Shown in pieces: positions 7,591 to 53,176 of a stretch of DNA of 64,000 nucleotides. The notes below the pieces were generated by a model, which was not told where the DNA came from, did no database searches, and was given only the letters and a program-made list of their open reading frames with translations. Numbering within the stretch: position 1 is the stretch's first letter; each line of letters starts with the position of its first letter. The stretch lies in NCBI GenBank assembly GCA_045627925.1, contig JAZQOS010000021.1, forward strand, positions 10,012 to 74,011, read 5' to 3'. The stretch comes from Kiritimatiellia bacterium (lineage in GTDB: Bacteria > Verrucomicrobiota > Kiritimatiellia > RFP12 > UBA1067). Position numbers and translations under genes: made by a program.

Positions 7591-8736
7591 TCAACGTTTC
7601 CGCGCTCCGGCGATTGCTTCGCGATATTCGCGATAAGCGGCGATGTCTTCGCGCTTCGCGCCGGTCTTGCCGAGCGCGGCGATCAGCGAATCGAGCGCTT
7701 CGAGCGACGCCGGATTCGCGGCGAGCGCGCGCGAACCGATTTCCACCGCCTGCGCGTGGTATCCGAGTTTAGCGGCGAGCTTTCCCGCCTCCAAAAATGT
7801 CGAAATCGCGCTGGGTCTCAAGGCGCAAGCGAGCTTGTAGTTCTCGAACGCCTTTTCCTGCCCGGCCTTCGAACCGTCGGTCTTCTGATATGCCTTCGCC
7901 AGCCCCAACGCCGCCGGATAGCTGAGCGCGTCCGCCTTGAGCGCGTCTTGATAGCGCAACCTCGCGGTCTTGAATTCGCCCTTCTTCCACGCGGCTTCGG
8001 CCTTCGCGAGCGCCTCGGCGCACTTCGCGCTGTCGCGCGAGCCCGCGCCCGGTCGTTCGGTTAGCGCGCGGGCGATCGTCTCCTTCAATCCGGGAATGAT
8101 CGCACGCTGGGTTTTCTGAACGCGCGGTGAAGCCTCCGCCTCGAGTCTTACGTACACGTTCAGCTGCTCCAGCGCGGCGTCATGATAACCGAAGGCGTCG
8201 CGATATAGAAGTCCGAGGTGATACCATGCGGCGGCATCGCGACGATTGACGCGAAGCGCCTGTAAAAAATCGACCCGCGCGATATGTCGGTTATCGCAAG
8301 CCATCTCGACGATGCCCTCGCCCGTCCAACCCTGCGCGCGAATCTCCGGTTCAAGCGTCGCGTCGGTCGCGATGCCCCGGAAAAGCTTCGTCGCCTTGGC
8401 GTAGTCCTTCGCGTGCCAGGCGATCTGCGCCGAAAGAATCCTCACGTCGGAGTCGCGCTCGGCGAGTTTCTCCGCCTTTTGCGCCAGCTCCTTCGCAGAA
8501 GCGAGTTCCCCGAGATCGAGCTTCACACGAGCGAGTTCGACGAGCGCGTCCACCCGCGTTGGCGCGCAAGCGACGCTCTTCTCGAAGAACTTCTCCGCCT
8601 TTTTGAGGTCGCGCGCCGCGTACGCCGCCCGACCGCGCTCCAATTCCGCGAGTCCGTCCTTCGCGCCGCACCCGACGAGCGCGACCATCGCGATCGCCAT
8701 CGCCGTCTTAAGCGCGAATGATGGCGAGAAATTCAT
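7591..8736 (-). CDS. TPR-repeat lipoprotein
   Basis: Start re-set to ATG 8736-8734 (MNFSPSFALKTAMAIAMVALVGCGAKDG). The lipobox is LVGC. Repeated A/Y/L-rich 34-aa-like helical repeats follow. Overlaps the end of the upstream gene by 29 nt. Confidence 0.7.
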   Translation of the reverse strand: MNFSPSFALKTAMAIAMVALVGCGAKDGLAELERGRAAYAARDLKKAEKFFEKSVACAPTRVDALVELARVKLDLGELASAKELAQKAEKLAERDSDVRILSAQIAWHAKDYAKATKLFRGIATDATLEPEIRAQGWTGEGIVEMACDNRHIARVDFLQALRVNRRDAAAWYHLGLLYRDAFGYHDAALEQLNVYVRLEAEASPRVQKTQRAIIPGLKETIARALTERPGAGSRDSAKCAEALAKAEAAWKKGEFKTARLRYQDALKADALSYPAALGLAKAYQKTDGSKAGQEKAFENYKLACALRPSAISTFLEAGKLAAKLGYHAQAVEIGSRALAANPASLEALDSLIAALGKTGAKREDIAAYREYREAIAGARKR

Positions 8737-10060
8737 CTCTCTTCTCCTCCATGATCTTTTGGGTTTTCCCTTCGAGATTGAGCCGGACGAGCGGCTCGGT
8801 ATTGGACATTCGCACGTTCGCCCAATAGCCCTCCGCCTCCCACGCATCCACCGAAACGCCGTCCAATTCGAAGACCTTCGCCTTCGTGGAATACGTCGCT
8901 TTGATCTTCGCGAGAATCTCGGCCGGCGGCGTCGAGGTCTTGGTATTGATTTCGCCGGACTGGAAGTACTTCTTCAGCGGCTCGACGAGTTCGGAAAGCG
9001 GTCGATCGCTCGCCGAAACGATATTCGCGAGCGCAAACGTCGCCATCGAGCTCGACTCCGCCGTCGAATTCGCCTTGAAGTAGTAGTGGCCGGAAAGCTC
9101 GCCCGCGAAAATGGCGTCGTTCTGGCGCATCTGTTCCTTAATGAAGGAGTGTCCGACGCGCGACATCATCGGCCGTCCGCCGGCGGCGGCGATCGTCTCT
9201 TCGCAAACTCGGCTGGACCTAAGGTCGTAGAAGCACGCCGCGCCCGGATTGGCGGCGAGCAAATCCTTCGAGATCAGCGCCGTGACAAAATCCATCGGAA
9301 TGATTTCGCCCTTTTCGTCGATGAAGCCCGCGCGATCAGCATCGCCGTCGTAGGCGACGCCGAAAGCGTACTTGCCGGGATTCGCCTTGATGAGCGCCTG
9401 CAAATCCTTCAGCGTCTCGTGGTGCAGAGGGTTCGCGTCGTGGTTCGGGAAGTCGCCGTCGTATTCGCCGTAGAGCGCGTCGTAGGTAATCGCCGAATTC
9501 GCGAACGCCGCCGACTCGGCGATGCCCATGCCGTTGGCGAAATCGAGCGCGAGATGCAACGGGCGCTTCAGGTGGGCGAACTTCCCGACGTGCGCGGCAT
9601 AGGCGGCGGAGACGTCGACCGAGGTTATCTTGCCCTTGCCGGCGGGCGCTTCCTCGCCGGTCATCGCGCCGACGAGCTTTTCGATGTCCTTGATGCCGGT
9701 CGCGCCGGAAATCGGCACGGCATTCGCCTTGCAAAGTTTGCAGCCGTTCCACTCCTTGGTGTTGTGCGAAGCGGTGATCATAACCGAGCCGTCCGCCTTG
9801 AGCGAGGCGTTGGCGAAATAGCTCATCGGCGTCGAAGCGAGACCGACGTCGAGAACTTCCACGCCCTCGTCGACGAGACCTTTCGCGAACGCCGCGAAAA
9901 GCGAATCCGACGACTTGCGGCAGTCTCGCGCCACCACCACCCGCGAGCCGGTCTTGAAGCCGCAGAATTGCGCATAGCCGCGCGCGATCTTGTAAAAATC
10001 GCCCTCGCCGAGGTCCTGTCCGTAGATACCGCGAATGTCGTATGCTTTGAATATGCTCAT
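8708..10060 (-). CDS. Phosphomannomutase/phosphoglucomutase
   Basis: 450 aa. MSIFKAYDIRGIYG start, catalytic TASHN phosphoserine loop, and a DGDADR metal-binding loop. Confidence 0.9.
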   Translation of the reverse strand: MSIFKAYDIRGIYGQDLGEGDFYKIARGYAQFCGFKTGSRVVVARDCRKSSDSLFAAFAKGLVDEGVEVLDVGLASTPMSYFANASLKADGSVMITASHNTKEWNGCKLCKANAVPISGATGIKDIEKLVGAMTGEEAPAGKGKITSVDVSAAYAAHVGKFAHLKRPLHLALDFANGMGIAESAAFANSAITYDALYGEYDGDFPNHDANPLHHETLKDLQALIKANPGKYAFGVAYDGDADRAGFIDEKGEIIPMDFVTALISKDLLAANPGAACFYDLRSSRVCEETIAAAGGRPMMSRVGHSFIKEQMRQNDAIFAGELSGHYYFKANSTAESSSMATFALANIVSASDRPLSELVEPLKKYFQSGEINTKTSTPPAEILAKIKATYSTKAKVFELDGVSVDAWEAEGYWANVRMSNTEPLVRLNLEGKTQKIMEEKRDEFLAIIRA

Positions 10061-10073
10061 TTGTCTGTTCCTT

Positions 10074-10694
10074 TTATTTCAAAATTCCGTTTTCGAGCGT
10101 CAACACCCGATCGCAAATCGCCGCCGCCTCGGGCGAGTGCGTGACCATGACGAGCGCGACGTCGGTTCCCTTCGAAAGTTCCTGCAGCATCCGCAGGATA
10201 TCCGCGCCGGTCATCGCGTCGAGATTGCCGGTCGGCTCGTCGGCGAGCACGACCTCCGGCTCGGTCACCAACGCTCGCGCAAGCGCGACTCGCTGCATCT
10301 CGCCGCCCGAAAGCTCCGCCGGCAGGTGTTCGAGCCGATTGCCGAGCCCGACCTTCGAAAGCAGCTCCTTCGCGCGCGACATCGCGTCAACACGAGCGCC
10401 GCCCTCGCGCATCGTCGGCAACATCACGTTCTCGAGCACGGTCAGCTCCGGCATGAGGTGGTACTGCTGAAAGACGAAACCGATGTTCTTCGGCCGGGTG
10501 ACCGTTCCCGAAGTCGGCTTTTCGAGCCCGCCCAGAATATTGAGAAGCGTGGACTTGCCCGCGCCCGAGCGTCCGATGATCGCGACCTTCTCGCCCGACT
10601 TCACCGCGAAGTTCACGCCCTTCAAAACCTCGATCGGCCGCTGGCCGGAGATCTTGAAACGTTTCTTCAAGTCGATGCTACCGAGGATGGTCAT
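10074..10694 (-). CDS. ABC transporter ATP-binding protein (LolD/FtsE-like)
   Basis: Start re-set to ATG 10694-10692 (MTILGSIDLKKRF...). Walker A GRSGAGKST, signature LSGGEMQR, Walker B VVLADEPT. ATGA overlap with the permease gene. Confidence 0.9.
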   Translation of the reverse strand: MTILGSIDLKKRFKISGQRPIEVLKGVNFAVKSGEKVAIIGRSGAGKSTLLNILGGLEKPTSGTVTRPKNIGFVFQQYHLMPELTVLENVMLPTMREGGARVDAMSRAKELLSKVGLGNRLEHLPAELSGGEMQRVALARALVTEPEVVLADEPTGNLDAMTGADILRMLQELSKGTDVALVMVTHSPEAAAICDRVLTLENGILK

Positions 10695-11917
10695 TGGTTC
10701 AACGCCTTTACCGGATCCTTCGCCGACGCCGCGAGCGCCGGAATGAACGACGCCGCGAGTCCGAAGACGAATACGAGGGAAACTACCCAAACGACATCGG
10801 AGACGATCAGCCGATGGGGAATCGCCGCGAGTCCGTACACCGAGGCGGGGAATACCTCGAGCCCCATCGTCGCGAGCCATTCCACGAGATTCTGCAGATT
10901 GGCCAAAATCGCCCACGACGCCAAAAGCCCGAGAACGACACCGAACGCGCACTGAATCATCCCGTGCACCATAAAGACCTTCATGATCTCGCGCTTCCTG
11001 AAGCCGAGCGCCTTCAAAAGCCCGATCTCCGGCGTTTTCTGCACCGTAAGGACGAGCAGCGTGTTCATTACGCAAAAGACCGCGACCAGCGAAATGAGCG
11101 ACAACAGAAGCGCCGTCATGTTCTTCTCGACCGCGAGCGCGTTGAAAATCTGGCGATCCGCTTCGCGCCAGGTGATCGGCCGCAACTCCGGCGCGATTTC
11201 GCGAACCTTGTCGCAAATCTCCTCGAAGCGGTCCGAGTCGGTCGGCGCGTCGGTCTTGAGATGAATCGCGAAAACGCCCTTCTCCATCCCCATCAAATCG
11301 CGCACGTTGTTGAGCGAGGCGATGACATAGCCGGAATCGTACTCGTGCTGACCGCACGAAAAGAGCCCGACGACCTTCCACTTCACCGGCAAATACACCT
11401 CGTCGGCGGCGACCAGCGTCTTCGGCGAATAGACCGTAATTTCGTCGCCGACGCGGGCACCGAGCGCGCGGGCGGCGCTATAACCGAGAACGAGCGAATC
11501 GCCCTCGAGCTCAAACGAGCCCGCGACCGGCTCGCCCACGCGATAAGCGTCCTTGAAATCGTCGCCGTCCACGCCGATGATGACCGGTGCGAGTACCTTG
11601 CCGTTGTACGAGAGGAGTACGCGCGTGTCGATTTCGGGCGTGACGCAAGTGACGCCGGGAATTTTCGCGAGCTTCTTCGCGAGCGCCTCCTCGCCGTGCA
11701 CCGTGTTTCCCTGCCGCGCCACGAGCGAGATGTGCGGCTTAAAATCGAGAATCTTCTCCTCCCAAATATCACCGAATCCGGTCATCACGCTTCGAACGAC
11801 GATAACCACCGCCACGCCCAGCATCACCCCGAGCACCGAAACGCAAGTGATGACCGAGGCGACCGAACGCTTCGGCTTCAAGTATTTTAGCGCCAAAAAT
11901 AGCGGAAAACCATTCAT
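10691..11917 (-). CDS. ABC transporter permease, LolC/LolE (FtsX-domain) family
   Basis: The track start is TTG at 11920. I prefer the adjacent ATG at 11917-11915 (MNGFPLFLALKYLKPKRS, a typical LolC/E N-terminus). Large periplasmic loop and C-terminal FtsX-like TM bundle. Confidence 0.85.
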   Translation of the reverse strand: MNGFPLFLALKYLKPKRSVASVITCVSVLGVMLGVAVVIVVRSVMTGFGDIWEEKILDFKPHISLVARQGNTVHGEEALAKKLAKIPGVTCVTPEIDTRVLLSYNGKVLAPVIIGVDGDDFKDAYRVGEPVAGSFELEGDSLVLGYSAARALGARVGDEITVYSPKTLVAADEVYLPVKWKVVGLFSCGQHEYDSGYVIASLNNVRDLMGMEKGVFAIHLKTDAPTDSDRFEEICDKVREIAPELRPITWREADRQIFNALAVEKNMTALLLSLISLVAVFCVMNTLLVLTVQKTPEIGLLKALGFRKREIMKVFMVHGMIQCAFGVVLGLLASWAILANLQNLVEWLATMGLEVFPASVYGLAAIPHRLIVSDVVWVVSLVFVFGLAASFIPALAASAKDPVKALNQ

Positions 11918-11947
11918 CAATTCACCGATGATAGTTTATCAAAATCG

Positions 11948-13210
11948 CTATTCCATGTCCACTTGAACGGGTACGTCTTTTTCGACGATTTCCCTGATCG
12001 CGCGTCTAAAGCCCTCGGCGTTGAAAGGCGGAGAATCAACACCAATGCGGTACTTGAGCGAGACGATGTATTCTTGCTCCCTGACGGATAGCGGGCGCGA
12101 GGCGAAAATCGGGAAAATCGGTCGCCCGACGTGATCGAGCGGATATTGAACCCCCGCTTCTTCGATTAGCAGAAGCCCGCCCACCTTCGAGCCCGCGCGC
12201 TCGCCGATCATAATCTCGATGAAAAACTTCTCGCCCGCCTTCGTTTCGAACCAGTCGCCGGGCACGAGCGGACTGACGATGCCGTGGAAGCCCGCCCACT
12301 TTCCGAGATGTTCGCGATCGGACGGCGTCCAACCGGTAATGCGGCGCGGACGCGGTTTCTTGCCGCCGCCCCAATTCGCCTCCAAAACTACCTTATGGTT
12401 AATCCGCACGACCAGCTGATCGTCGAAGTAGCCGACGAAGCGGTAGCGCGAACTCTTTCCGGGTTCAATTTCGCCGCGATAATAAATCGCCCATCCGCGC
12501 GAAGTCATCTCGCGCTCTACACCGAACGCCTTGGGCGCGTTCTCGGCGGGTTGCCGGCGCATGAGCAGATGGGTGAACGCCATTTCCTTCTTCGGCCGGT
12601 AATACTCGTCCATCGCCGCCTCCGAAAAATCCGCCGCGACGACTTTCCTTACGTCCGCCCAATAGCCCTCGTCGGTGTAATCTTCGCGCATCGATCCGTC
12701 GCGTTTGCGCTTGAAGTCGATGATGCGTCCGACGAGCGCGCCGTCGAGATAGTGACCGCGCCCGCCTTCGCCGATTCGCATTCCGAAATCTCCGCCCTCG
12801 CCGTTGTCGAGCCCGCGAAGCCGAACCTTGCCGACGACGGCGTTCATCGTCACGGGGCTCGCAATTTGAACGACCTTGTCCGGCTCCAAATCGAAAACCT
12901 CGCCCGGCGAAGGAATTTCCGGCAGATCCTTCTCGGCGTTCTCGAAGCCGATTTCGATTTCGTCCGGCGATTCGCTCGTCAAGGTCGAATCGTCGAGTTC
13001 GATTTCCATCGGCTCGACGAGTTCCGGAACGGGCGGTTCCACCGGCGCGACGAAAATCTCCGTTTCGTCCTTCCGCTCGCCGTCGCCACTCGCGGTGACG
13101 AAAATCAAGACGCAGAAAATCGCGAGCGGCGCGAAAATCGCCGTTGCGACCGAAAGCGCGTTGAGCCGATGCCGACTTTCCGCTATTCGGAAAGCCGGCG
13201 GTGGACCCAA
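11948..13210 (-). CDS. Membrane-anchored protein with PA14-like periplasmic domain, paralogue C of the TonB-slot family
   Basis: Clear paralogue of 13860-15203 and 15210-16526. Shared strings include YRFVGYFDDQLVVRINHKVVLEANWGG, GRPIFPIFASRPLSV and IGVDSPPFN. There is no in-frame ATG before the TM segment (ALSVATAIFAPLAIFCVLIFV). I propose a TTG start at 13210-13208, overlapping the Sel1-like gene. The start is uncertain. Confidence 0.6.
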   Translation of the reverse strand: MGPPPAFRIAESRHRLNALSVATAIFAPLAIFCVLIFVTASGDGERKDETEIFVAPVEPPVPELVEPMEIELDDSTLTSESPDEIEIGFENAEKDLPEIPSPGEVFDLEPDKVVQIASPVTMNAVVGKVRLRGLDNGEGGDFGMRIGEGGRGHYLDGALVGRIIDFKRKRDGSMREDYTDEGYWADVRKVVAADFSEAAMDEYYRPKKEMAFTHLLMRRQPAENAPKAFGVEREMTSRGWAIYYRGEIEPGKSSRYRFVGYFDDQLVVRINHKVVLEANWGGGKKPRPRRITGWTPSDREHLGKWAGFHGIVSPLVPGDWFETKAGEKFFIEIMIGERAGSKVGGLLLIEEAGVQYPLDHVGRPIFPIFASRPLSVREQEYIVSLKYRIGVDSPPFNAEGFRRAIREIVEKDVPVQVDME

Positions 13211-13863
13211 CCGCCTTCGCGAACTTCCGCGTGAGTCATTGCCTGCCAAATCTTGAACGCCTTGATCGCATCGCCACGGTTGCGCTTGGTGCCGATGCCG
13301 TAGTAGCCGCAAACCCCGCACATGAAAATCGCATCCGCCGAACCGGCGATGCCGGCGGCGCGGAAATACTCGAACATCTTCTTCGCGTCGTACTTCTCGC
13401 TCGTAATCGCCTTGACGAAAATCGCGCTCGCGACCTCGCCGCAAGCCATGGCGTCGCCCGCGCGCGCCGCCGCCGTAATCTTCTTAAAACCCGGAACGAA
13501 GTTCTTCGGCCGGTCGGTGACGTACTTGCCGCGCGGCGGAAACACCTTGGGTCCGAGATTCGCGGGACCGTTCCAAGTCGTCCCGAACGCGGTCGAAACT
13601 TTGGCGGTGGTGCCGCTTTCGCTCGTGTGGTGGTGGTTCACCGGCCCGATTTTGCCGTTAAGACAGCGCATGACGTCGTCCCACGCCTCCTTGCCGGTCG
13701 CCGTTACGAATTCGTCGTCGATGCGATCGCACTTTTTTACCAATTCGGGCAAGATTCTCCCGCCGACGAGTTTCACCCCTTCGGCGAAAAGCTCGTCGCC
13801 GAAGGAATTGCCCGCGACGACAAGCGCCGTCGCCAACGCGAAAATCGTCCACCGCCGTTTCAA
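13183..13863 (-). CDS. Secreted Sel1-like repeat protein
   Basis: Real part begins at TTG 13863-13861 (TTGA overlap with the upstream stop): (M)KRRWTIFALATALVVAGNSFG signal peptide. The C-terminal half has Sel1-like repeats (AAGIAGSADAIFMCGVCGYYGIGTKRNRGDAIKAFKIWQAM). The upstream part of the 339-aa track ORF is Arg-rich and overlaps the neighbouring gene. Confidence 0.55.
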   Translation of the reverse strand: MKRRWTIFALATALVVAGNSFGDELFAEGVKLVGGRILPELVKKCDRIDDEFVTATGKEAWDDVMRCLNGKIGPVNHHHTSESGTTAKVSTAFGTTWNGPANLGPKVFPPRGKYVTDRPKNFVPGFKKITAAARAGDAMACGEVASAIFVKAITSEKYDAKKMFEYFRAAGIAGSADAIFMCGVCGYYGIGTKRNRGDAIKAFKIWQAMTHAEVREGGWVHRRLSE

Positions 13864-15203
13864 ATGTCCACTCCGACGGAGACGTCGTCCTTGACCATCT
13901 TTTCCTTGGCCTTGGCGCTGCCGCGCGAATTGAATCGCGGCGAATCGACACCGAACTTGAACGAATTCTTTCCGATGCGATCTTTTTCGTTCACCGAGAG
14001 CGGACGCGAGGCGAAAATCGGCAGAATCGGACGGCCGCCGTCTTTTGGATATTCCTCGCCTTCCTTCTGAATAAGCAAGCATCCGCCGCACTTTCCGCCT
14101 TGCGTTTCGCCAAGTGCCAGTTCCATCTTCAAGATCTTGCTCGGATCGGCGTCGAACCAATCGCCGACGACAAGCCAGGAATTGTGCTGCGGGCTCGCCC
14201 ACTTTCCGACCAGCTCGGAGTCATGCGGCGCCCAACCGGTAATCCGTCCCGAAGCGGCGCTGGCCGAACCCGAGCCACGGCGATCCTGCGGCCCGTGCCC
14301 CCACGACGCCTCGAGAACCACCTTGCCGTTGATTTTAACGACCATAAACTCGTCGAAGTAACCAGCGAAGCGATAGCGCGCCTTCTCAGTCGGCTTGAGT
14401 TCGCCAGTGTAATACGCCATCCATCCGGAGCCGCCGAAATCGTTCGCGCCGAACGCCTTGGGGCCGTCGTCGGCGCTGGTCGAAGGATCGATCAATACCT
14501 TGGTAAGCGCGACCTTCTTGTTGGGGACGTAAAACTTCGCAAGCGCCTCGGCGGAAAATCCGCCGGCGGCGATGCCCTTGAGAAATTCCCACGACTTGCT
14601 GCCGCTATAATCGTTGCGGTTGCCCTCGCCGTCGCGCTTCAAGTCGACGAGTACGCCGATAAGGCACCCGTCGACGTTCTGCCCGCCCTTGATGAGCGTA
14701 CCGAATCCGCCTTCCGTACCGTCGCCGATACCGCGAAACTTCGCGCCTGCAACCGCCGCCATCGTTACCGGGCTCGGCGTTTGCGCGACCTTGTCCGGCT
14801 CGCCGCCCGGATCGGGGCTCGGCGGCGCGGGATTGACGATATCGGGAGTTACGACGTCGACCGTGACGTCGACGTCCTCGGTCATGTCGATTTCCTCGGG
14901 CTCCGGTTCCGGCTCTTCAAGCTCCTCGGCCTTCTCCTCGATGTTGGAGATTTCGACTTCGATGTGCTCGCGCTGTTGCGCCGAGACCGCCGTCACCACG
15001 ATAAGGACGATTACTCCGAGAATCGGCGCGACGATCGCGATAATCGGCGCCTTGAGCCGTTGCAGCTCTATAAGCGCGAGCTTGTAGTCGCGCGAATCCT
15101 TCGGCTGTTTGAATCCGGCGAGCATATCGCCGATTCGCCGGAAGAACCCGTGCTCTTCGTACTGCTCGGAAAGTTCGTCAATATCGATAATACCGTCCGC
15201 CAT
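13860..15203 (-). CDS. Membrane-anchored protein with TonB-like N-terminus and PA14-like periplasmic domain, paralogue B
   Basis: 447 aa. Cytoplasmic N-terminus, single TM (APIIAIVAPILGVIVLIVVTAV), acidic/Pro-rich linker (EEPEPEPEEIDM..., NPAPPSPDPGGEPD). The C-terminal domain has the pattern GWMAYYTGELKPTEKARYRFAGYFDEFMVVKINGKVVLEASW. No TonB C-terminal motif is visible. Confidence 0.75.
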   Translation of the reverse strand: MADGIIDIDELSEQYEEHGFFRRIGDMLAGFKQPKDSRDYKLALIELQRLKAPIIAIVAPILGVIVLIVVTAVSAQQREHIEVEISNIEEKAEELEEPEPEPEEIDMTEDVDVTVDVVTPDIVNPAPPSPDPGGEPDKVAQTPSPVTMAAVAGAKFRGIGDGTEGGFGTLIKGGQNVDGCLIGVLVDLKRDGEGNRNDYSGSKSWEFLKGIAAGGFSAEALAKFYVPNKKVALTKVLIDPSTSADDGPKAFGANDFGGSGWMAYYTGELKPTEKARYRFAGYFDEFMVVKINGKVVLEASWGHGPQDRRGSGSASAASGRITGWAPHDSELVGKWASPQHNSWLVVGDWFDADPSKILKMELALGETQGGKCGGCLLIQKEGEEYPKDGGRPILPIFASRPLSVNEKDRIGKNSFKFGVDSPRFNSRGSAKAKEKMVKDDVSVGVDI

Positions 15204-15209
15204 AACGTT

Positions 15210-16526
15210 TTAGATGTCCACTCCGACGGAGACGTCGTCCTTGACCATCTTTTCCTTGGCCTTGGAGTTGCCGCGCGAATTGAATCGCGGCGAATCAACG
15301 CCGATCTTGTAGGAGTTTTTGCCGATGCGATCCTTTTCGTTCACCGAAAGCGGACGCGAGGCGAAAATCGGCAGAATCGGCCGATTGCCGTCCTTCGGAT
15401 ATTCCTCGCCTTCCTTCTGGATGAGCAATAGCCCGCCGATGATTCCGCCCGGACGTTCGCCGATTACCAAATCCATCTTGAACTTCTTGCCCGGCTCGAC
15501 CGCGAACCAGTCGCCGACGACGAGTCGATCGCGATCCCGCGGACCTCGCCACTCGCCGATTACCGACTGGTCGCTCGGCCCCCACCCCGACATCGGGCTC
15601 TTGTTGGATCCGCTCTTGCCGGGCATGTGGTCGCAGACGCACTCGAAAACCGTCTTGCCGTCGATTCTGACCATGATGCAGTCGTCGAAGAATCCCGCGA
15701 AACGGTAACGCGCCTTTTCGGTCGCCTTGATTTCGCCGGTATAGTAGGCGAACCATTCCTTCGGCTTCATCTGATCGCCGGCGCCGAACGCCTTCGGGCC
15801 GTTGCCCGCGTCCTGCATCGGAATGAAGACGTGAGTCAACGCCACTTTCTTGGGAACCACGTAAAAGTTCGCCAGCGACTCCGGCGAGAAATCCTTCGCC
15901 ACCGCCGAGCTTACGTCGTTCCAATACGAAGGCGTGCGCGGATTGCCCTCGCCGTCGCGCTTCAAGTCGACGAGTACGCCGATGAGGCACCCGTCGACGT
16001 TCTGCCCGCCCTTGATGAGCGTACCGAATCCGCCTTCCGTGCCGTCGCCGATGCCGCGGAACGGCGCTCCATTCATAGCCCGCATCACCACCGGGCTCGG
16101 AGTTTGCGCGACCTTGTCCGGCTCGCCGCCCGGATCAGGACTCGGCGGCGCGGGGTTGACGATGTCGGGAGTTACGACGTCGACCGTGACGTCGACGTCC
16201 TCGGTCATGTCGATTTCCTCGGGCTCCGGCTCTGGCTCGTCAAGATCCTCGACCTTGTCCTCGATGTTGGAGATTTCGACTTCGATGTGCTCACGCTGTT
16301 GCGCCGAAACCGCCGTCACCACGATAAGAACGATTACTCCGAGAATCGGCGCGACGATCGCGATGATCGGCGCCTTGAGTCGCTGCAGCTCTATAAGCGC
16401 GAGCTTGTAGTCGCGCGAATCCTTCGGCTGCTTGAATCCGGCGAGCATATCGCCGATTCGCCGGAAGAATCCGTGCTCTTCGTACTGCTCGGAAAGTTCG
16501 TCGATATCGATGATGCCGTCCGCCAT
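15210..16526 (-). CDS. Membrane-anchored protein with TonB-like N-terminus and PA14-like periplasmic domain, paralogue A
   Basis: 438 aa. The first ~89 aa are identical to paralogue B and the last ~85 aa nearly identical, with a diverged centre (EWFAYYTGEIKATEKARYRFAGFFDDCIMVRIDGKTVFECV). Lies immediately downstream of exbD in the position normally taken by tonB. Confidence 0.75.
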   Translation of the reverse strand: MADGIIDIDELSEQYEEHGFFRRIGDMLAGFKQPKDSRDYKLALIELQRLKAPIIAIVAPILGVIVLIVVTAVSAQQREHIEVEISNIEDKVEDLDEPEPEPEEIDMTEDVDVTVDVVTPDIVNPAPPSPDPGGEPDKVAQTPSPVVMRAMNGAPFRGIGDGTEGGFGTLIKGGQNVDGCLIGVLVDLKRDGEGNPRTPSYWNDVSSAVAKDFSPESLANFYVVPKKVALTHVFIPMQDAGNGPKAFGAGDQMKPKEWFAYYTGEIKATEKARYRFAGFFDDCIMVRIDGKTVFECVCDHMPGKSGSNKSPMSGWGPSDQSVIGEWRGPRDRDRLVVGDWFAVEPGKKFKMDLVIGERPGGIIGGLLLIQKEGEEYPKDGNRPILPIFASRPLSVNEKDRIGKNSYKIGVDSPRFNSRGNSKAKEKMVKDDVSVGVDI

Positions 16527-16538
16527 GACGCCGATTCC

Positions 16539-16949
16539 TTAAAGCGTGAAGATGCTGACGCTGTAGAGCCCGTTCTGGTAGCAGCTGTCGAGAACGTCCA
16601 CCAACGCCTTGTGCGGAGAGTTCTCCGTGCACTTGACGATGATCGGCGTCTTCTTGGAAGTAAGCGCGATCTCGCGCAAGTTCTGGTCGAGCTCCGCGCG
16701 CTTCACCGGCTTGCGGTTATAAAGAACGAGTCCGTTCGCGTTGCGGCCGTTGGTGCCGATTTCGATCGTGACCGTGATATCGCTCGGTTGCGATTCGCTG
16801 TTCGTCGCCGGCGCGGGCCGGTTGGCGTTCAGCTTCGAGAGCATGTCCTCGGTCTTGATCGTAACGACGAAGAAGATGATGAGCTCGAAAACGACGTCGA
16901 TCATCGGCGTCATATCCAAAGCCGGATTTTCCTGGGGTTTCCTCGCCAT
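16539..16949 (-). CDS. exbD: ExbD/TolR-family protein (copy 2)
   Basis: 136 aa. The N-terminus MARKPQENPALDMTPMIDVVFELIIFFVVT is the ExbD/TolR signature (MTPMIDVVF..L..FF). Confidence 0.85.
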   Translation of the reverse strand: MARKPQENPALDMTPMIDVVFELIIFFVVTIKTEDMLSKLNANRPAPATNSESQPSDITVTIEIGTNGRNANGLVLYNRKPVKRAELDQNLREIALTSKKTPIIVKCTENSPHKALVDVLDSCYQNGLYSVSIFTL

Positions 16950-16950
16950 A

Positions 16951-17445
16951 TTACCTCCCCTTCAGCCGCGAAAGTCGAGGCCGCGCCGAATTGCCGGGCT
17001 TGGAGGTTCGATCCTCCTGCACCGCCATAAACGAAATCTTCCAAATCCCGTTCGCGGTGCAGGCGTCCATAACCTGCTTGACCGCGCGGTGCTGAACCTC
17101 GAAGTCGGCGCGAATCAAAACCGGAAATTCGCCGATCTTCTTGTAGCGCTCCTTGATGCGCCGGCCGATCTCCTCGGGCGTAATCTCGCGGTCGCCCATC
17201 GAAATACGGCCCTTGGGCAGCAACCTGCCGAGCTTGTCCCGCGCCGCGATGTCGATTTGCATGTGCGTCGGCGGCAGCTCCTCCGGCGTGAGCACGATGC
17301 CGTGGCGTCCGTCCTCGAGCTCGATCGTCTCGTCCTTCTTCTGCGCTTCGACCAGCGTAACGACGAAGAAGATGATGAGCTCGAAGACGACGTCGATCAT
17401 CGGCGTCATATCCAAAGCCGGATTTTCCTGTGGCTTTCTCGCCAT
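16951..17445 (-). CDS. exbD: ExbD/TolR-family protein (copy 1)
   Basis: 164 aa. The first 30 aa are identical to copy 2, then the sequences diverge. 1-nt gap to copy 2. Confidence 0.85.
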   Translation of the reverse strand: MARKPQENPALDMTPMIDVVFELIIFFVVTLVEAQKKDETIELEDGRHGIVLTPEELPPTHMQIDIAARDKLGRLLPKGRISMGDREITPEEIGRRIKERYKKIGEFPVLIRADFEVQHRAVKQVMDACTANGIWKISFMAVQEDRTSKPGNSARPRLSRLKGR

Positions 17446-17457
17446 GGTCAGAATCCC

Positions 17458-18261
17458 TTAGGCGACTTCCTCGCCGCCCTCGACCTGCACGTTCCTGAGA
17501 CCGTTCAGAATCTCCATGGTCATCGCCGTCATCTTGAGGACGAGGCGGTTGGCCTTGTTGCGCAGCGAATAGAACACGGCCACCGACGGAATCGAGACGA
17601 TGAGGCCCGCCGCAGTCGTCCAAAGCGCCTGGCCGATCGAGCTTGCGAGCGCCGCCGCGTCTCCCGCGCCGCCCGAAGCGAGCGCCTGGAAGGTCAAAAT
17701 CATGCCCTGCACCGTACCGAGCAAGCCGAGCGAAGGCCCGAGGTTGCCGCAAACCGCAATCCAGTTGAGCCGCTGCTGAATCTTCTCCTGCTCGAGATCG
17801 GAAGCCGCGGTAACCGCCTCCTGAATCGCCTCGAAGCCCTCTTCGATGTGCTGGAACGCCGCCATCACGATCGACGACATCGCCGACGGATTCTGCTGGC
17901 AGACGTCCATCGCCCTTACGACGTCACCCTCGGCCATCGCCGCCTGCACACCGTCCAGAAGGCGCTTGGGCATGAGCTTTTCTGGCTTGATGAGAACCGA
18001 CGAGTCGATCGAGAAGTAAATCGCGAACGCGCCGTCGCCGAAAAGCGCGAGCCACAGGAGCATGCCGACAACGCCCGAACCGAAGACGATGTCGTAGAAT
18101 CCGCCGCCGCTCTTTTGCGTAGTGTTGGCCGCGTCGCTCGAAACGACGTTACCGTTCGCGTCGGTGATTTCCTGACCGAACGAGGTGAGCGCCGCCATCG
18201 GCGCGACCGCGGTACCGACGAGAATCGCCGCCGCCATCAATGATTTCCTGATTTTGTTCAT
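17458..18261 (-). CDS. exbB: MotA/TolQ/ExbB proton-channel protein
   Basis: 267 aa. The C-terminal core GNLGPSLGLLGTVQGMILTFQAL...ALWTTAAGLIVSIPSVAVFYSL is the MotA_ExbB channel signature. It has an N-terminal signal-like segment plus an extra periplasmic region. Confidence 0.9.
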   Translation of the reverse strand: MNKIRKSLMAAAILVGTAVAPMAALTSFGQEITDANGNVVSSDAANTTQKSGGGFYDIVFGSGVVGMLLWLALFGDGAFAIYFSIDSSVLIKPEKLMPKRLLDGVQAAMAEGDVVRAMDVCQQNPSAMSSIVMAAFQHIEEGFEAIQEAVTAASDLEQEKIQQRLNWIAVCGNLGPSLGLLGTVQGMILTFQALASGGAGDAAALASSIGQALWTTAAGLIVSIPSVAVFYSLRNKANRLVLKMTAMTMEILNGLRNVQVEGGEEVA

Positions 18262-18301
18262 CTTGGTTTTCCTTGTAGTGGACGTTTGTGAATTGTGAAT
18301 C

Positions 18302-19072
18302 TTACATCGCCTTCGCCTGCGACCGAAGCTTCTCTGCGCGACCCGCCTGACCGCGCTTGTCGAAGCAATCCGCCGCCTTGGCCATCGCCTCGGCGCGTTC
18401 GCTCGCGCACTCCGGATCGTTGTACATGAGAACGACCCTCATATACCCGTCGCGCAACGCCTGTTCGAGTCCGTCGCTCGAGCCGTTGGTGTCCGCGACG
18501 ATCATATCTCCGCGCATCGTGAACGCCGCCGCCGAGGACTTGCGGTCGCCTTGCGAAATCGCCTTCTTGACGAGCGTATCGAGTTCGGTGCGCTTGCCGA
18601 GTTTCAAAAGCGCCTTCCAGTAGGCGGGAGCCATCTCGCCGGAGTAGGCGGCGCTCTTGTCGTCGCCGATTACGCCCTGACAGACGTCGTACGCCTTCTT
18701 CGCGTCGCCGGTCGCGAGATAGGCGAGCGCGAGATAACGCGCCGCCGGACGATCCCACTTCAGCATGCGATAATCGTCGACGATCTTCTTCAAAGCCCCG
18801 ATCGCGCTCGAGCCCTGCCCCGCCTCGACCTGGGCGATCGCCTTGTCGAGCGCGGCCGGCTTGGCGACGTCGAGCGAAACGACGTCCGCGAGCTTGATTT
18901 CGATATCGACCATCGTCGAACCCTTCTTGAGCGAGACGACGTATTGCTTCGTCCGGCTTTGCCACTTGATCTCGCCGGTGCTGGAATTCGCCTCCGTCGA
19001 AATCGTCCCCTGAACCGCCGAGGCCGAAGCCGTGGCGAGCGCGACAAGCGCCAATATCGTGAATTTGCGCAT
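18302..19072 (-). CDS. Secreted helical-repeat (TPR-like) protein, function unknown
   Basis: Start re-set to ATG 19072-19070 (MRKFTILALVALATASASAVQG signal peptide). TAATG overlap with the upstream TPR gene. The C-terminal half is alpha-helical-repeat-like. Confidence 0.6.
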   Translation of the reverse strand: MRKFTILALVALATASASAVQGTISTEANSSTGEIKWQSRTKQYVVSLKKGSTMVDIEIKLADVVSLDVAKPAALDKAIAQVEAGQGSSAIGALKKIVDDYRMLKWDRPAARYLALAYLATGDAKKAYDVCQGVIGDDKSAAYSGEMAPAYWKALLKLGKRTELDTLVKKAISQGDRKSSAAAFTMRGDMIVADTNGSSDGLEQALRDGYMRVVLMYNDPECASERAEAMAKAADCFDKRGQAGRAEKLRSQAKAM

Positions 19073-22000
19073 TATGGATTCTCCTTCTTGGGTAGAGCCG
19101 CTCCCGGCAGTTCCGCCTTGGCGCGGTTCATGCAGTTGGCGATTTCCGTTCTCGCCTTGCCGTTCGGGAATTGTTCGAGATATTCGCCGCCGAAGCGAAG
19201 GACGCGCTCGGCCTGCTCCGCGCCCATCTTGGCGAAGAGCGGTACGATCGTTGCGTAGGCGCGCTCCAGATTCTCGAGCTCGCCCGCGCTCATCGCGGAA
19301 AGCGGACGCTCCTCGCTCGCGCCGTGCGACTGGATGAACGCCTGGAAGGTCGAGGCCGCGCGTCCGCACGTTTCCATCGCCTCTTCCTTGAGATTCATCG
19401 CCTCCTCGGCCTTCATCCGATCGATGAGCACGTCGCCGGAAAGTAGATCGATCTTGTCCTGCTCCCACTGTTCGCGCGTCTTCCAGTACTGGCGAACCTT
19501 CTTGATCGCGCCAATCGCCGCGCCGAAATACTTGCCGCGCTGAACGGCGTCCTTCTCGGAGCGGCCCTGCGCGCTCGCGACCTCGACGAGCAGGAAGTTC
19601 GCGTCGGCGGCGATCATCATCTTCGCCATCTTCTTATCGCCGAGGAACTTGTCGAGCGCCTCGCGCGCCTCGGCGAGCGAACCCTGCTTGAACGCGCTCT
19701 TCGCCTGCCCGAGCCGCGCCCGGGCGACGACCGAAAGCTGATTGGTGCCGGCGAGCTTGATCGCCTTGTCGAAGGCGCGACCGGCGAGCTCCCAGTTGCG
19801 CGCGTCGATGAGCGCCTCGCCCGCGTTCTCGTACTGGAGCGCGGAATACGCACCGTCGGTACCGAGCATCTCGGCGTAAATCTCCGCGCCTTCCTTCTTC
19901 ATGCCGATCTCGATCAGGTTCTTCGCGAGCCGCGGCTTGGCGTTCTTCGCCTCATCGGAATCGGGGAAGCGCTTCGAAAGCGCGTCCAGCGCGTTCTTCG
20001 ACTTCTCCACGTCGCCGAGCGCGGTGTAGATCGTGCCGAGCTTGACGTAGCCGAGCTTCGAGTACTTGCCGTCGGGATAGGCCTCGAGATATTCCTCGAA
20101 GCTCTTCGCCGCCTGCTTGCGATACATCTCGAGCTTGGACTCGGGCCGGTTCATCCGACTCCAGCACTCGCCCGCGAGGAACTTCGCGCCCTCGGCGAGT
20201 TCGACGAACTTCTTCGCCTCTTCCTGGGAAAGCGAAGCGTCCTTGGCCATTTCCGCCGCCTTGCCCGAGAAGTCGTTGAATTGCTTGACCGCGCGGATGA
20301 TTTGCGCCGTGCCGCGCTTCTCCGCCGCCTCGATCGCCTCCGCCGTTTCATTAGTTGAAGCCGCCGCGAGAATGTCGAGGCCGTCGTCCTTGTAGAGCTG
20401 GGCGAGCGACATCTGCGCCTGAATGCGGTGGCGCGGGTTGGTCTCGAGTTCGACGTAGCGGTTCATCGCCGCGATCGCCTCGGCGCGATCGCCGAGCTTG
20501 TTGTAGCACTCCGAAAGCTGCGCGAAGCTCGTCGCGTAGTAGACCGAATTCGAGTAGTATTCGCCGACTAACTTCCACAGCGCAATCGCGTCGTCGTAGC
20601 GCTTCTCGCGCTGCGCCTCGCCCGCCAAGCCCGCCGCGGTCTGCGCCGCCGTCGCATGCTTGCGGTAGTTGACGACGAACGCCTTGCGCAAGCGGTCGCA
20701 CCGCGCCATCTCCTGAAGATCCTTTTCGCGCGCCGCTACTCTCAAAAGCGCATCGCCCGCCGCCAGCATCATGAGCCGCTTCGCGCCCGCGAACCGCTCC
20801 GAGAGATACCCTTCGATTACGTCGGCGTCGGCGCGCAGCTCCTCAAGCCGCTCGCCGCCCTTCTTGGCGAGCTTGAATTTCAGAATCTGCTCCAAGTGGG
20901 CGTAAATAAGGTTCTCAATTCCGCCGATCGACTCGGGGCATTCGGGATAGCGCGAAAGAACATCGTACCCTTCCTTGATCGCGCCCTCGAAATCGCCCTC
21001 GGAGAAGCGGTCGGACGCGACCTTGAACTGCATCGCGCGAACCTTGGCGATCATCTCGGGCGTGACCTGCGAAGTGATCTTCGCGCCGTAGGTCTTCTCG
21101 GCGAACGCCTTGATTTCGTCGGCGAGTTCGCCCGCGTTCGCCGCCCAAGTGGACTCGGGATAGCGCAAGAAGACGTTGAGCGAGTGGTTGTAGGCGCCCT
21201 GACCGTTGCGCTTGCCGTTCGCGAGCTTCTCGCCGAACATGAGCGACTTGATCTTCTCGTCGTCCTTCTTCGGTTTTTTGGACTCGGCGAGCGCTTCGTC
21301 CCACATAAGCCGCGCCAAAAGATAGCGGCACTGCGGCATCGGCGAAAGCCGGAGCATGCCCTTGCGCCCGTCGGGGTCGATGGCGGCGATGGACTCGTGC
21401 AATTCGCCGAGCTGCGGTAGGTAGTCCTCGAGATATCCCATCGCCCGGTCGAGCCGTCCGCGCAAAAGCTCGATGTGCGACTTCATATTGACCGCGCGGC
21501 CGAAATAGACCGACTGCTCGGGATGCTTCAAAATCTTGTCGACGATCTTCTCCGCCGAATCGAGATAGGGAGCGCGCTTCTTCTGGTCGGCGACCTCGCT
21601 CGCGAGCTTGAGCTGAAGTTCCACCGTCTCGCACCCCATCATGCACCACTGCTGCGTTTCCAACTCCGGCTTGAGATTAAGGAGCCCCTCGTAGACCTTC
21701 ACCGCGTCGGCGAAACGCTGGTCGCCGCAGAGAATCTGGCCCCAGGCGAAACAGGCGTTGATATAAAATACGCGCAGCTCCTTCTTGGGGCTCGCGAACT
21801 TCTTGAAGAACTCGTCGTAGATTTTCTTGCACTCGTCCTTCTTGCCGACGAAATTGTAGCGATTGGCGAATTCGAGCCGCGCCGCCCAATACTTCGTGCT
21901 GTTGCGGTCGGGCAAGGCGCCGATCTTCTTCTCGGCCTCCTCGAACTTGTTCAGCGCGAGTAGCGAACGAATCTCAATCGCGAAAAAGCGAACGTCCGCC

Positions 22001-22191
22001 TCCGGCCAACGCTTCTTCGTCGCCTCGATTACGGGAGAGGCGAGATCGGGGTACCCCGAATCCACCAACGCCTCCACATAGGCGATTTCACGTTCGAGTT
22101 CGGGGTCCTCCTGCGGTTCCTCCGCCGCGGTCTCGGCGAAAACCGAACCCGCCGCGATTAGCGAAAAAACCAACGCAAGCTCTAATCTCAT
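19072..22191 (-). CDS. Large secreted TPR-repeat protein (1039 aa)
   Basis: Signal peptide MRLELALVFSLIAAGSVFAETA, then many TPR-like repeats rich in A/Y/L/K/E. First gene after a consensus promoter. Confidence 0.75.
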   Translation of the reverse strand: MRLELALVFSLIAAGSVFAETAAEEPQEDPELEREIAYVEALVDSGYPDLASPVIEATKKRWPEADVRFFAIEIRSLLALNKFEEAEKKIGALPDRNSTKYWAARLEFANRYNFVGKKDECKKIYDEFFKKFASPKKELRVFYINACFAWGQILCGDQRFADAVKVYEGLLNLKPELETQQWCMMGCETVELQLKLASEVADQKKRAPYLDSAEKIVDKILKHPEQSVYFGRAVNMKSHIELLRGRLDRAMGYLEDYLPQLGELHESIAAIDPDGRKGMLRLSPMPQCRYLLARLMWDEALAESKKPKKDDEKIKSLMFGEKLANGKRNGQGAYNHSLNVFLRYPESTWAANAGELADEIKAFAEKTYGAKITSQVTPEMIAKVRAMQFKVASDRFSEGDFEGAIKEGYDVLSRYPECPESIGGIENLIYAHLEQILKFKLAKKGGERLEELRADADVIEGYLSERFAGAKRLMMLAAGDALLRVAAREKDLQEMARCDRLRKAFVVNYRKHATAAQTAAGLAGEAQREKRYDDAIALWKLVGEYYSNSVYYATSFAQLSECYNKLGDRAEAIAAMNRYVELETNPRHRIQAQMSLAQLYKDDGLDILAAASTNETAEAIEAAEKRGTAQIIRAVKQFNDFSGKAAEMAKDASLSQEEAKKFVELAEGAKFLAGECWSRMNRPESKLEMYRKQAAKSFEEYLEAYPDGKYSKLGYVKLGTIYTALGDVEKSKNALDALSKRFPDSDEAKNAKPRLAKNLIEIGMKKEGAEIYAEMLGTDGAYSALQYENAGEALIDARNWELAGRAFDKAIKLAGTNQLSVVARARLGQAKSAFKQGSLAEAREALDKFLGDKKMAKMMIAADANFLLVEVASAQGRSEKDAVQRGKYFGAAIGAIKKVRQYWKTREQWEQDKIDLLSGDVLIDRMKAEEAMNLKEEAMETCGRAASTFQAFIQSHGASEERPLSAMSAGELENLERAYATIVPLFAKMGAEQAERVLRFGGEYLEQFPNGKARTEIANCMNRAKAELPGAALPKKENP

Positions 22192-22200
22192 GATGATGAA

Positions 22201-22229
22201 ATTATACTACAATACCCGCGATGGGTCAA
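22201..22229 (-). promoter_or_regulatory. Sigma70-type promoter for the TPR-ExbBD operon (TTGACC-N17-TATAAT)
   Basis: The reverse strand reads cTTGACCcatcgcgggtattgtagTATAATttcatcatcATG. The -35 is at 22229-22224 and the -10 at 22206-22201. Only 9 nt separate the -10 from the ATG at 22191. Confidence 0.55.
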
Positions 22230-40056: not shown

Positions 40057-40587
40057 TTACCAGCGGAGATCGTAAAGTCGCACTGATTCATTTTTCTGGC
40101 AATTTTGTCGGTTCCTCGTCGACATCGAGCGCCCCTGTATCCGCTGCGTTGAGTGGCGGGCAATCCATCGTTCAGAATATCCCAACCGCCGATAATCTGC
40201 CAACGCCTGCTGAATTGAAAGTTCTGGATCTTGCATCTGATCCAACCGCTCGGCGGCAACATGCGCCATCCACATCTTGAACGGCTCCGCCTTGGGCGAG
40301 GGGATGGATTGGATAAGCCGGAACATCTGCTCGGCGGTTGCCACATCCGTTTTATATAACTTTCCATCTGCGGCCCTTAATCTCAGTTGGTTACAATTTG
40401 TAACCGACTCGTTCCCTTCTTTTTTCAGGCGGTTTTTGAGTACTTTCCAATAATTACGCGGGTCTGCGCTTTCAGTCAGCACCGATACAACATCAACGAC
40501 TGAAAAATACCAATTTTCGGCAACATCATCCCAAATCGAGCGAATTTTACGCTCTCCGAACACCTTAACAATCTCTGTCATTGACAT
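40057..40587 (-). CDS. Bro-N domain (prophage antirepressor-like) protein, probably C-terminally truncated
   Basis: The track start is TTG at 40593. I prefer ATG 40587-40585 (MSMTEIVKVFGERKIRSIWDDVAENWYFSVVDVVSVLTES...LFRLIQSIPSPKAEPFKMWMAHVAAERLDQMQDPEL). This matches the widespread Bro-N/COG3617-type family as I remember it, whose members are usually ~100 aa longer. The sequence after GYSERWI looks degenerate. Confidence 0.65.
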   Translation of the reverse strand: MSMTEIVKVFGERKIRSIWDDVAENWYFSVVDVVSVLTESADPRNYWKVLKNRLKKEGNESVTNCNQLRLRAADGKLYKTDVATAEQMFRLIQSIPSPKAEPFKMWMAHVAAERLDQMQDPELSIQQALADYRRLGYSERWIARHSTQRIQGRSMSTRNRQNCQKNESVRLYDLRW

Positions 40588-40674
40588 TTTCAAGCTTCCT
40601 TTTTGCAGACATAGACAAATCTACACTTCGCCAATTCTATGACCTATACGCTCCCCTCGCGAGGAACAGAAAGT

Positions 40675-51103: not shown

Positions 51104-51285
51104 TTCCTGACGATTTCGTCCTCGATTTCCTTACCGGCGTTCTCGTCCCGACCGAGCGCCTTGTTCGCGCCCTTCTTGAGCTTGCGCCAGAAAACGCCGA
51201 ACACGACGCCAAGCGCAATGGCGACGCCGGCGATCGCCTGCACGGTGTAGGACATCACCGAGGGATCCACGTATGCGAATATCAC
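51100..51285 (-). CDS. Small single-TM membrane protein (hypothetical)
   Basis: One TM helix, SYTVQAIAGVAIALGVVFGVFW, followed by a basic/acidic tail. The start is either GTG 51285 (GTGA overlap with the upstream stop) or ATG 51255. Support comes from position in a coupled gene string only. Confidence 0.4.
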   Translation of the reverse strand: MIFAYVDPSVMSYTVQAIAGVAIALGVVFGVFWRKLKKGANKALGRDENAGKEIEDEIVRK

Positions 51286-53174: not shown

Positions 53175-53176
53175 AT

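Follow-up and report, generated by a model that had tools for sequence, protein, structure and literature searches.

The window analysed here, a stretch of 64,000 nucleotides (nt) from contig JAZQOS010000021.1 of a gut Kiritimatiellia bacterium, carries on its minus strand an operon in which genes for an ExbB/ExbD-type motor are followed by three paralogous genes (A, B and C), whose products resemble TonB in overall layout but end in a predicted PA14-like domain. Read from its promoter, this single operon encodes a large TPR protein, a 256-amino-acid (aa) protein, ExbB, two ExbD proteins (ExbD1 and ExbD2), A, B, a 226-aa protein and C (Table 1), and successive genes are separated by -4 to +40 nt, except for the start of C, which lies at -67. 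The promoter-like site (TTGACC, 17 nt, TATAAT) is the best sigma-70-type match in the 12.5 kilobases (kb) between positions 9900 and 22400. Only 9 nt separate the end of its -10 box from the ATG of the TPR gene, so that the transcript would be nearly leaderless, with no space for a Shine-Dalgarno site. This gene order, the promoter and the tight spacing had all been proposed in an earlier reading of the sequence alone (hereafter the original prediction), and were confirmed by coordinates, Pfam matches and the DNA itself. The operon probably continues past C into genes for a LolCE-like permease and a LolD-like ATPase, since the gap after C is 27 nt and a terminator was not found there. Genes for TolB, Pal or a TonB-dependent receptor were found neither in the operon nor among the open reading frames (ORFs) scanned in the 64-kb window, and the Plug and TonB_dep_Rec families were not found in the large ORFs scanned across it, in agreement, for these ORFs, with the predicted lack of a receptor.

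A begins with a conserved cytoplasmic N-terminus and a transmembrane helix, continues with an acidic Pro-rich linker that leads through an SPV motif into a PA14-like head, and ends with a Lys-rich spacer before the tail DVSVGVDI-COOH. An AlphaFold model of the single chain, based on 56 homologues, predicts two short cytoplasmic helices, then a long helix (residues 38-74) covering the membrane span, followed by a disordered, acidic and Pro-rich linker (residues 78-158, predicted local distance difference test score (pLDDT) <50) and by a head at about residues 160-420 (pLDDT >90). The motifs on which the original prediction had relied (EPEPEPEE, NPAPPSPDPGGEPD and W.AYYTGE...RYRF.GYFDD) are all present in the sequence.

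Searches with profile hidden Markov models (HMMs) from Pfam and NCBIfam gave no match of A, B or C to TonB_C (PF03544) or TolA domain III at E <= 0.1. Pfam PA14 (PF07691) matched A with 17.8 bits and B with 13.4 bits, against a gathering threshold of 24, and did not match C. The fibro-slime (NCBIfam, E <= 0.1) and GLEYA (Pfam) models did not match any of the three proteins, and membership of the fibro-slime, GLEYA or TonB_C families was dropped on account of these empty searches. A Foldseek comparison of the model of A with the PDB gave 45 matches at E <= 1e-3, of which the top 22 are all PA14 lectin domains. The best is the PA14 domain of the Marinomonas ice-binding adhesin MpIBP (6m8m, E 3e-7, target TM-score 0.62), and further top matches include 6x8a, Candida Epa1/6/9 (Epa1A) and yeast Flo1/5. 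Those after the top 22 are mostly PA14 lectins and PA14-bearing GH3 and GH31 enzymes, and anthrax protective antigen fell just under the cut-off (E 1.4e-3). The family profile, searched against PDB chain sequences, gave a chance match only. According to its model, the head of A is a PA14 beta-sandwich lying below the sequence threshold of Pfam. Both the suggestion of a PA14-like C-terminal domain and that of a missing TonB_C pattern are therefore borne out, the former by the predicted structure of A and the predominance of PA14 domains at the top of the Foldseek list, the latter by the HMM and fold searches.

The segment RYRFxGYFD[DE] of the head aligns with the 'DD' position of Pfam PA14. Its first Asp (D281 in A) is kept in at least 90% of members, with Asp or Glu as the next residue, and this pair may correspond to the Asp-cis-Asp calcium/sugar site of lectin PA14 domains such as those of Flo5 and Epa1. 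Head residues D187, Y262, R275, D281, W315, D339, W340 and E357 are invariant across lineages.

Divergence among the three paralogues is unevenly distributed. In successive 50-aa blocks, the identity between A and B is 1.0, 0.92, 0.96, 0.81, 0.53, 0.56, 0.34, 0.82 and 0.89; it is 92-100% through residue 150, 34-56% across head residues 200-350 and 82-89% over the last 90 residues, and the first 450 nt of the two genes are about 94% identical. This pattern suggests a recent tandem duplication in which the putative motor-binding end and the tail were kept and the head loops diversified. C comprises a short Arg-rich N-terminus, a transmembrane helix, a linker, a PA14-like head and a variant tail, DVPVQVDME. 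It lacks the cytoplasmic module that is conserved at the N-terminus of A and B (32 bits with the anchor profile, versus about 220), and would be an older, trimmed copy; the transmembrane helix, which the original prediction noted as shared with A and B, is kept. The TTG start of C, at position 13249, lies 67 nt within the preceding gene, and an orthologue in a related locus (L007), full length like C and 77% identical to it, has an equal overlap of 67 nt with a matching TTG start, which argues that C is under selection. On the same grounds, we ruled out that C is a pseudogene.

The original prediction had asked whether the operon is conserved in related genomes. We fetched 80 loci from species-representative genomes, gut and rumen Kiritimatiellia metagenome-assembled genomes (MAGs), and the order TPR, protein of about 255 aa, ExbB, ExbD, ExbD, transducer, LolCE and LolD held in about 55 of them; LolCE and LolD lie after the transducer gene in most related loci. 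All full-length homologues come from gut, rumen and faecal Kiritimatiellia MAGs. The usual occupant of the transducer slot is a protein of about 570 aa whose anchor is 40% identical to A over residues 9-190 and which bears a different head, and the PA14-like head fills the slot in just six other loci. This second head has weak Pfam matches to squalene-hopene cyclase and prenyltransferase models and is predicted to form an (α/α)6 toroid, the closest PDB structures being sugar 2-epimerases, GH76 mannanases, squalene-hopene cyclase and the C3 complement thioester domain. Carbohydrate recognition is typical of both folds, PA14-like and toroid. The anchor profile, run exhaustively with HMMER against 1.84 billion representative sequences, gave 281 matches; among the best 150 of these, every near-full-length protein has a PA14-like or a toroid head, none has TonB_C, and no protein is headed by a vWA domain. 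A word-indexed homologue search with the same profile returned mostly fragments and contributed little more.

The transducer is single-copy within the operon in most genomes. In some, extra copies are encoded away from the motor, and one genome has a toroid-headed protein in the operon and a PA14-like one elsewhere (L015, L027), which implies that one motor can serve several transducers. The neighbours of the Kiritimatiellia operon include Lol genes and those for phosphomannomutase and GMP synthase. Two contigs of another assembly (JAZRWB01, Kiritimatiellia SGB_3709; L010 and L011) encode an N-terminus that is 100% identical to the first 79 residues of A, and on that identity the genome probably belongs to the same or a very close species. 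Both contigs stop at residue 79. Short-read assembly seems to fail across the nearly identical 5' ends of A and B, and the copy number in MAGs is therefore probably under-counted.

Anchors of the A type have the helix consensus QR[LQ]xAPxxAIxxPxxGVxxLIVVTAV and, N-terminal to it, about 50 aa of conserved cytoplasmic sequence. A His in the helix, or the SHLS motif of TonB and TolA, is absent in the 56 aligned members and in the 80 loci. The TonB-like anchor of the original prediction thus stands as far as topology goes (a membrane-spanning helix with a disordered, acidic and Pro-rich linker after it), but not in its details, there being no His/SHLS and an extra cytoplasmic segment. A conserved I-x-V-x-I-A stretch, whose A86 is kept in at least 90% of members, follows 6-12 residues after the helix (pLDDT <50, not predicted as a strand) and falls where the 'motor box' of TonB and TolA sits, just after the helix (PMC12204202). 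At the opposite end, both head classes share a tail made of a Lys-rich stretch and then [DE][VI]x[VI]x[VI]D[IL]-COOH (49 of 51 PA14-class and 53 of 56 toroid-class proteins), disordered in the AlphaFold models of both. That the two ends are conserved and the middle swapped suggests that the ends make fixed contacts, one with the motor and the other with a putative protein partner. A linker motif that repeats the tail pattern occurs in 41 of 51 PA14-class proteins; with only 5 of 56 in the toroid class, it was dropped as a general feature.

The head is not confined to the Kiritimatiellia family. A search with a profile of the head alone retrieved 136 proteins, many of them from outside that family and some labelled Verrucomicrobia. 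Among the relatives of non-Kiritimatiellia type that are at least 360 aa long, 34 of 35 have a His in the N-terminal helix, and 30 of those 34 have a Ser at position -4 from it (for example SLIVHGAVILLVGS); judged from sequence, this Ser-x3-His helix is the TonB/TolA signature. The heads of the Ser-x3-His relatives (such as P0071 and P0346) are 28-35% identical to those described here (E 1e-39 to 1e-74). Several head relatives exceed the Pfam PF07691 threshold, and one carries GLEYA. The Ser-x3-His relatives have the same three-part layout as A, B and C but, unlike A and B, neither the Kiritimatiellia cytoplasmic module nor the VDI tail. A metagenomic locus (L090) encodes a TPR protein of 913 aa, a TPR-like protein of 282 aa, ExbB, ExbD, ExbD and three tandem Ser-x3-His paralogues, and so repeats the layout of the window in another lineage; in pairwise comparison, its TPR and 282-aa proteins have weak, repeat-level similarity only to their counterparts in the window. 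Other His-helix copies adjoin genes of the glycoside hydrolase (GH) families GH81 and GH2-like, and large amylase-like, PTS, LacI, sugar isomerase-like and SSF transporter genes.

Head relatives of 250-300 aa (P0306-P0365, for example P0315 from Verrucomicrobia bacterium LW23) mostly have signal-peptide-like starts, together with a conserved aromatic C-terminal ending such as WKSYQ, and these features suggest that they are transducer heads in free form, either periplasmic or secreted. In a further locus (L091), an orphan His-helix PA14-like transducer adjoins a 259-aa protein (positions 8344-9123 of that locus) that scores 20.0 bits with PEP-CTERM (cutoff 20.7), beside which lie an amylase-like giant protein and a LacI regulator.

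Regarding the motor, ExbB has an N-terminal signal-like segment and a periplasmic extension, and its best NCBIfam match is tolQ (E 5.5e-20, below the family cutoff). The periplasmic domains of ExbD1 and ExbD2 differ from each other, and a pair of unlike ExbD genes is kept in all related operons. In contrast to these domains, residues 1-30 of the two proteins, which include the N-terminus and the transmembrane segment with its conserved Asp, are identical, and the corresponding DNA is identical at 95 of 120 positions (79%). Identity of the 30 residues despite this DNA divergence argues that selection keeps a common pore helix in both; the same divergence rules out recent gene conversion as its cause. 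The 1039-aa TPR protein contains a region resembling YbgF/CpoB and BamD (NCBIfam tol_pal_ybgF, E 4e-15, 56 bits, below the 90-bit cutoff), and its counterpart occupies the equivalent position in about 55 related loci. The start of the 256-aa protein overlaps the stop of the TPR gene by 1 nt, and its position is kept in relatives. The TTG start of the 226-aa protein overlaps the stop of B. The label of Sel1-like given to this protein by the original prediction is only partly upheld: a sequence search of PDB chains matched it weakly to the Sel1-like repeats of DELE1 (E 6.8e-6) and to a Sel1 repeat protein (E 1.2e-3), whereas Pfam gave no match. Its homologues lie downstream of the transducer in three loci (L007, L009 and L012), and a fourth (L008) has an unannotated 218-aa gene at the corresponding position.

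Table 1. Features of the transducer operon, in order of transcription (positions in the window).
Feature	Position	Strand	Evidence
Sigma-70-type promoter-like site, TTGACC-17 nt-TATAAT	22201..22229	-	11/12 consensus positions; sequence read
TPR protein, 1039 aa, signal peptide	19072-22191	-	Pfam TPR_14, TPR_6, TPR_19, YfiO
Secreted protein, 256 aa, weakly TPR-like	18302-19072	-	Signal peptide MRKFTILALVALATASASA; Pfam TPR_19 E 0.0027, sub-threshold
ExbB/TolQ-type proton-channel subunit, 267 aa	17458-18261	-	Pfam MotA_ExbB E 3e-26
ExbD1, ExbD/TolR-type, 164 aa	16951-17445	-	Pfam ExbD E 1.3e-20
ExbD2, ExbD/TolR-type, 136 aa	16539-16949	-	Pfam ExbD E 2.3e-23
Paralogue A, 438 aa	15210-16526	-	AlphaFold model, Foldseek, Pfam PA14 17.8 bits
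Paralogue B, 447 aa, tandem duplicate of A	13860-15203	-	77% identical to A
Secreted protein, 226 aa, C-terminus weakly Sel1-like	13183-13863	-	Signal peptide MKRRWTIFALATALVVAGNSFG; PDB sequence matches
Paralogue C, 433 aa	11948-13249	-	41% identical to A; head-profile E 1e-105
LolCE-like permease	10691-11920	-	Pfam MacB_PCD + FtsX
LolD-like ATPase	10074-10694	-	Pfam ABC_tran

Directly upstream of the operon, the region 22253-46146 (minus strand) encodes giant secreted proteins of 2114, 1248, 2177 and 1690 aa, three with Peptidase_C25 (gingipain-like) matches and one with a weak F5/8 type C match. With a G+C content of 0.48-0.57, versus about 0.60 elsewhere, and an ORF with a BRO-N domain at 40057-40593, this region may be an acquired island. 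At 51282-53345 (minus strand), a 687-aa ORF joins a YidC/60KD_IMP insertase (residues 79-264) to a CDP-glycerol glycerophosphotransferase (residues 319-594), and may represent either an uncommon fusion or a pair of genes taken together as one ORF.

Taken together, these data make it fairly probable, in our judgement, that A, B and C are force transducers which the adjacent motor drives, and which bind a glycan with the head and a partner with the tail; we infer their physical coupling to the motor, the binding of glycans and the nature of the target. Anchored in the inner membrane and spanning the periplasm, the three proteins would be powered by ExbB5-(ExbD1/ExbD2) in the manner of TonB and TolA. 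Their N-terminal helix, together with the conserved cytoplasmic segment, would dock on the motor, the disordered linker of about 80 residues would cross the periplasm, and force would be delivered through the PA14-type, lectin-like head gripping a glycan. The C-terminal strand [DE]VxVxVDI-COOH would probably attach to a protein partner, either by adding a strand to it or by being captured as a peptide. Binding of C-terminal peptides is common among TPR domains, and each operon encodes two TPR-type proteins, which makes the latter candidates for this partner. The target is most likely an envelope component, either peptidoglycan or an outer-membrane glycoconjugate, and the role a Tol-like housekeeping one, as favoured by the conserved neighbourhood of Lol, phosphomannomutase and core genes and by the many invariant residues of the head. 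A motor-driven function is supported by the Ser-x3-His relatives of the head, by the L090 operon and by the linkage kept in about 55 loci, as well as by a published precedent, in which AlphaFold 3 models put the helix of a vWA-headed transducer at the TonB site (PMC12204202).

Several observations nevertheless weigh against this interpretation. The His of the SHLS motif in the TonB/TolA helix contacts ExbB/TolQ; with no His/SHLS in the helix of A, B and C, any docking on the motor must differ from that of TonB and TolA. The putative motor box has no predicted strand and a pLDDT below 50. Regarding the head, the PA14 HMM scores of all three proteins are under the Pfam threshold, and the conserved Asp-Asp/Glu pair, as read from the alignment, suggests a lectin function but falls short of proof. 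Finally, the neighbourhoods of the orphan copies are uninformative, consisting of housekeeping genes and, beside a toroid copy, one GH92.

An alternative function for the same proteins would be the capture or import of nutrient glycans, in replacement of TonB and SusC-type uptake, the three heads of the window corresponding to three specificities. This would fit the fact that both head folds are carbohydrate-recognition folds and that A and B diverge mainly in head residues 200-350, as well as the genomic contexts: GH81, GH2-like, amylase-like, PTS, LacI and SSF genes adjoin the His-helix relatives, a GH92 adjoins one orphan toroid copy, and glycan-degrading genes (GH95, NAGLU, GH16) abound in the window. 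Kiritimatiella glycovorans has moreover been reported to be without SusC-like uptake systems (PMC5148204). However, glycoside hydrolase genes are so common in genomes of the Planctomycetes-Verrucomicrobia-Chlamydiae (PVC) group that adjacency is weak evidence, and the Kiritimatiellia operon itself lies among housekeeping and envelope genes, outside glycan-degradation clusters. Most genomes also have a single in-operon copy, and the invariance of head residues across lineages suggests one conserved ligand. We consider nutrient uptake unlikely, although it is the main alternative.

Two other explanations appear much less credible. A, B and C hold the TonB position after exbB-exbD-exbD and might be ordinary TonB proteins with a very divergent C-terminal domain, energising receptors encoded elsewhere: genes with PF00593 and PF03544 do exist in some Kiritimatiellota (Pontiella), and K. 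glycovorans has been drawn with an outer-membrane receptor and its energising complex (PMC5148204). Yet TonB_C was matched neither by HMM nor by fold, a PA14-like head of about 250 aa contrasts with the TonB domain of about 90 aa, and the same slot holds an (α/α)6-toroid head in most relatives. Receptor genes were also not found in the scanned large ORFs of the 64 kb, and the Kiritimatiellota genus Tichowtungia has a vWA version of the system with no discernible TonB or TolA (PMC12204202), all of which makes a disguised TonB very improbable. The proteins might otherwise be RsgI-type anti-sigma transmembrane sensors that neighbour the motor incidentally. Their architecture (a cytoplasmic segment, a helix, a linker and a carbohydrate-sensing domain) is indeed like that of RsgI, some RsgI proteins carry PA14, PDB entries 6qdi and 6qe7 are among the fold matches, and for a TonB-like protein their cytoplasmic N-terminus is exceptionally long and well conserved. 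We would be greatly surprised by such a sensor, however, given that the conserved operons contain no sigma factor or regulator gene, that Pfam gives no anti-sigma domain match, and that the ExbB/ExbD/ExbD linkage is tight, ancient and common to the Ser-x3-His relatives.

Few outputs are known for proton-driven 5:2 motors (ExbBD, TolQR, MotAB and GldLM). To the vWA domain, the locus adds two heads that are exchanged in one operon slot on a common anchor, namely the PA14-type lectin fold and the (α/α)6 toroid. Should these heads bind glycans, mechanical work would be applied directly to periplasmic carbohydrate, which could explain envelope stabilisation or glycan uptake in polysaccharide degraders of the gut and rumen, in some of which TonB/TolA or SusC-type systems are not recognisable. 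Testable handles are offered by the conserved tail and by the helix without His. On a more speculative level, one could imagine a widespread, so far undescribed PVC class of 'pulling lectins' (in Kiritimatiellia, in proteins partly labelled Verrucomicrobia and in others), that is, ExbBD-coupled transducers powered by the proton-motive force whose swappable heads (PA14-like, toroid or vWA) grip glycans directly and not a TonB-box protein, either standing in for Tol-Pal in attaching the outer membrane to the wall or driving glycan uptake independently of TonB-dependent receptors, with capture of the VxVxVDI tail by TPR proteins as a new coupling element. This proposal is tentative, and rather unlikely.

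A related system came out of a bacteria-wide search for TolA and TonB (Williams-Jones et al., 2025, Mol Biol Evol; PMC12204202), which reported a PVC operon type in which a TPR gene is accompanied by a tolQ-like gene, a pair of different tolR-like genes and at least one transducer with a vWA head. In the published transducers, an SHLS helix is joined to the vWA head by a disordered linker that contains a motor box, and their function is not known; Tichowtungia has two of them. They were presented as a third kind of TonB-like transducer, with further kinds thought probable (PMC12204202). The operon of the window matches this type in its TPR gene, its tolQ/exbB-like gene, its unlike tolR/exbD pair and its transducers, and A, B and C, like the published proteins, combine a helix and a disordered linker with a globular, non-TonB C-terminal domain. 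A, B and C belong to this PVC motor-transducer operon type. They differ from its described members in having a PA14-like head (a toroid in most relatives) and not a vWA domain, a helix without the SHLS histidine of the published family, and a conserved cytoplasmic segment and [DE]VxVxVDI tail that are not described there; PA14 or toroid heads are not mentioned in that work (PMC12204202). Full-text literature searches for ExbD with PA14, or for ExbD with squalene-hopene cyclase in Planctomycetes, found nothing relevant.

With TonB and TolA, the three proteins have in common their position after the motor genes, a single helix with its N-terminus inside, a disordered Pro-rich linker and genetic linkage to exbB and exbD, present in the window and in about 55 related loci. 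The presence of several transducers for one ExbBD motor recalls the multiple TonB paralogues that share a motor, and the weak resemblance of the TPR protein to CpoB/YbgF recalls Tol-Pal. In contrast, A, B and C are without TonB_C, TolA domain III and the helix His, and since neither the C-terminal domain nor the SHLS motif was found, they are not members of the TonB/TolA family. With PA14 lectins (MpIBP, Epa1, Flo1/Flo5 and the inserts of GH3 and GH31 enzymes), they share a predicted β-sandwich (Foldseek E 3e-7 to 1e-4) and the Asp-Asp/Glu pair of RYRFxGYFDD at the 'DD' position, but the sequence identity is about 10-14%, the head has about 250 aa, with extra elements, and its predicted place is in the periplasm on an inner-membrane tether, not on display at the cell surface. 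The proposal of a new output module on an ExbBD motor is supported for the PA14-like head, whereas the concept of a non-TonB output was already published (PMC12204202). What is new here is the PA14-like and toroid heads, their exchange in one slot, the shared tail and the His-less anchor, together with the link to a broad family outside the gut Kiritimatiellia that carries the same head on canonical TonB-type helices.

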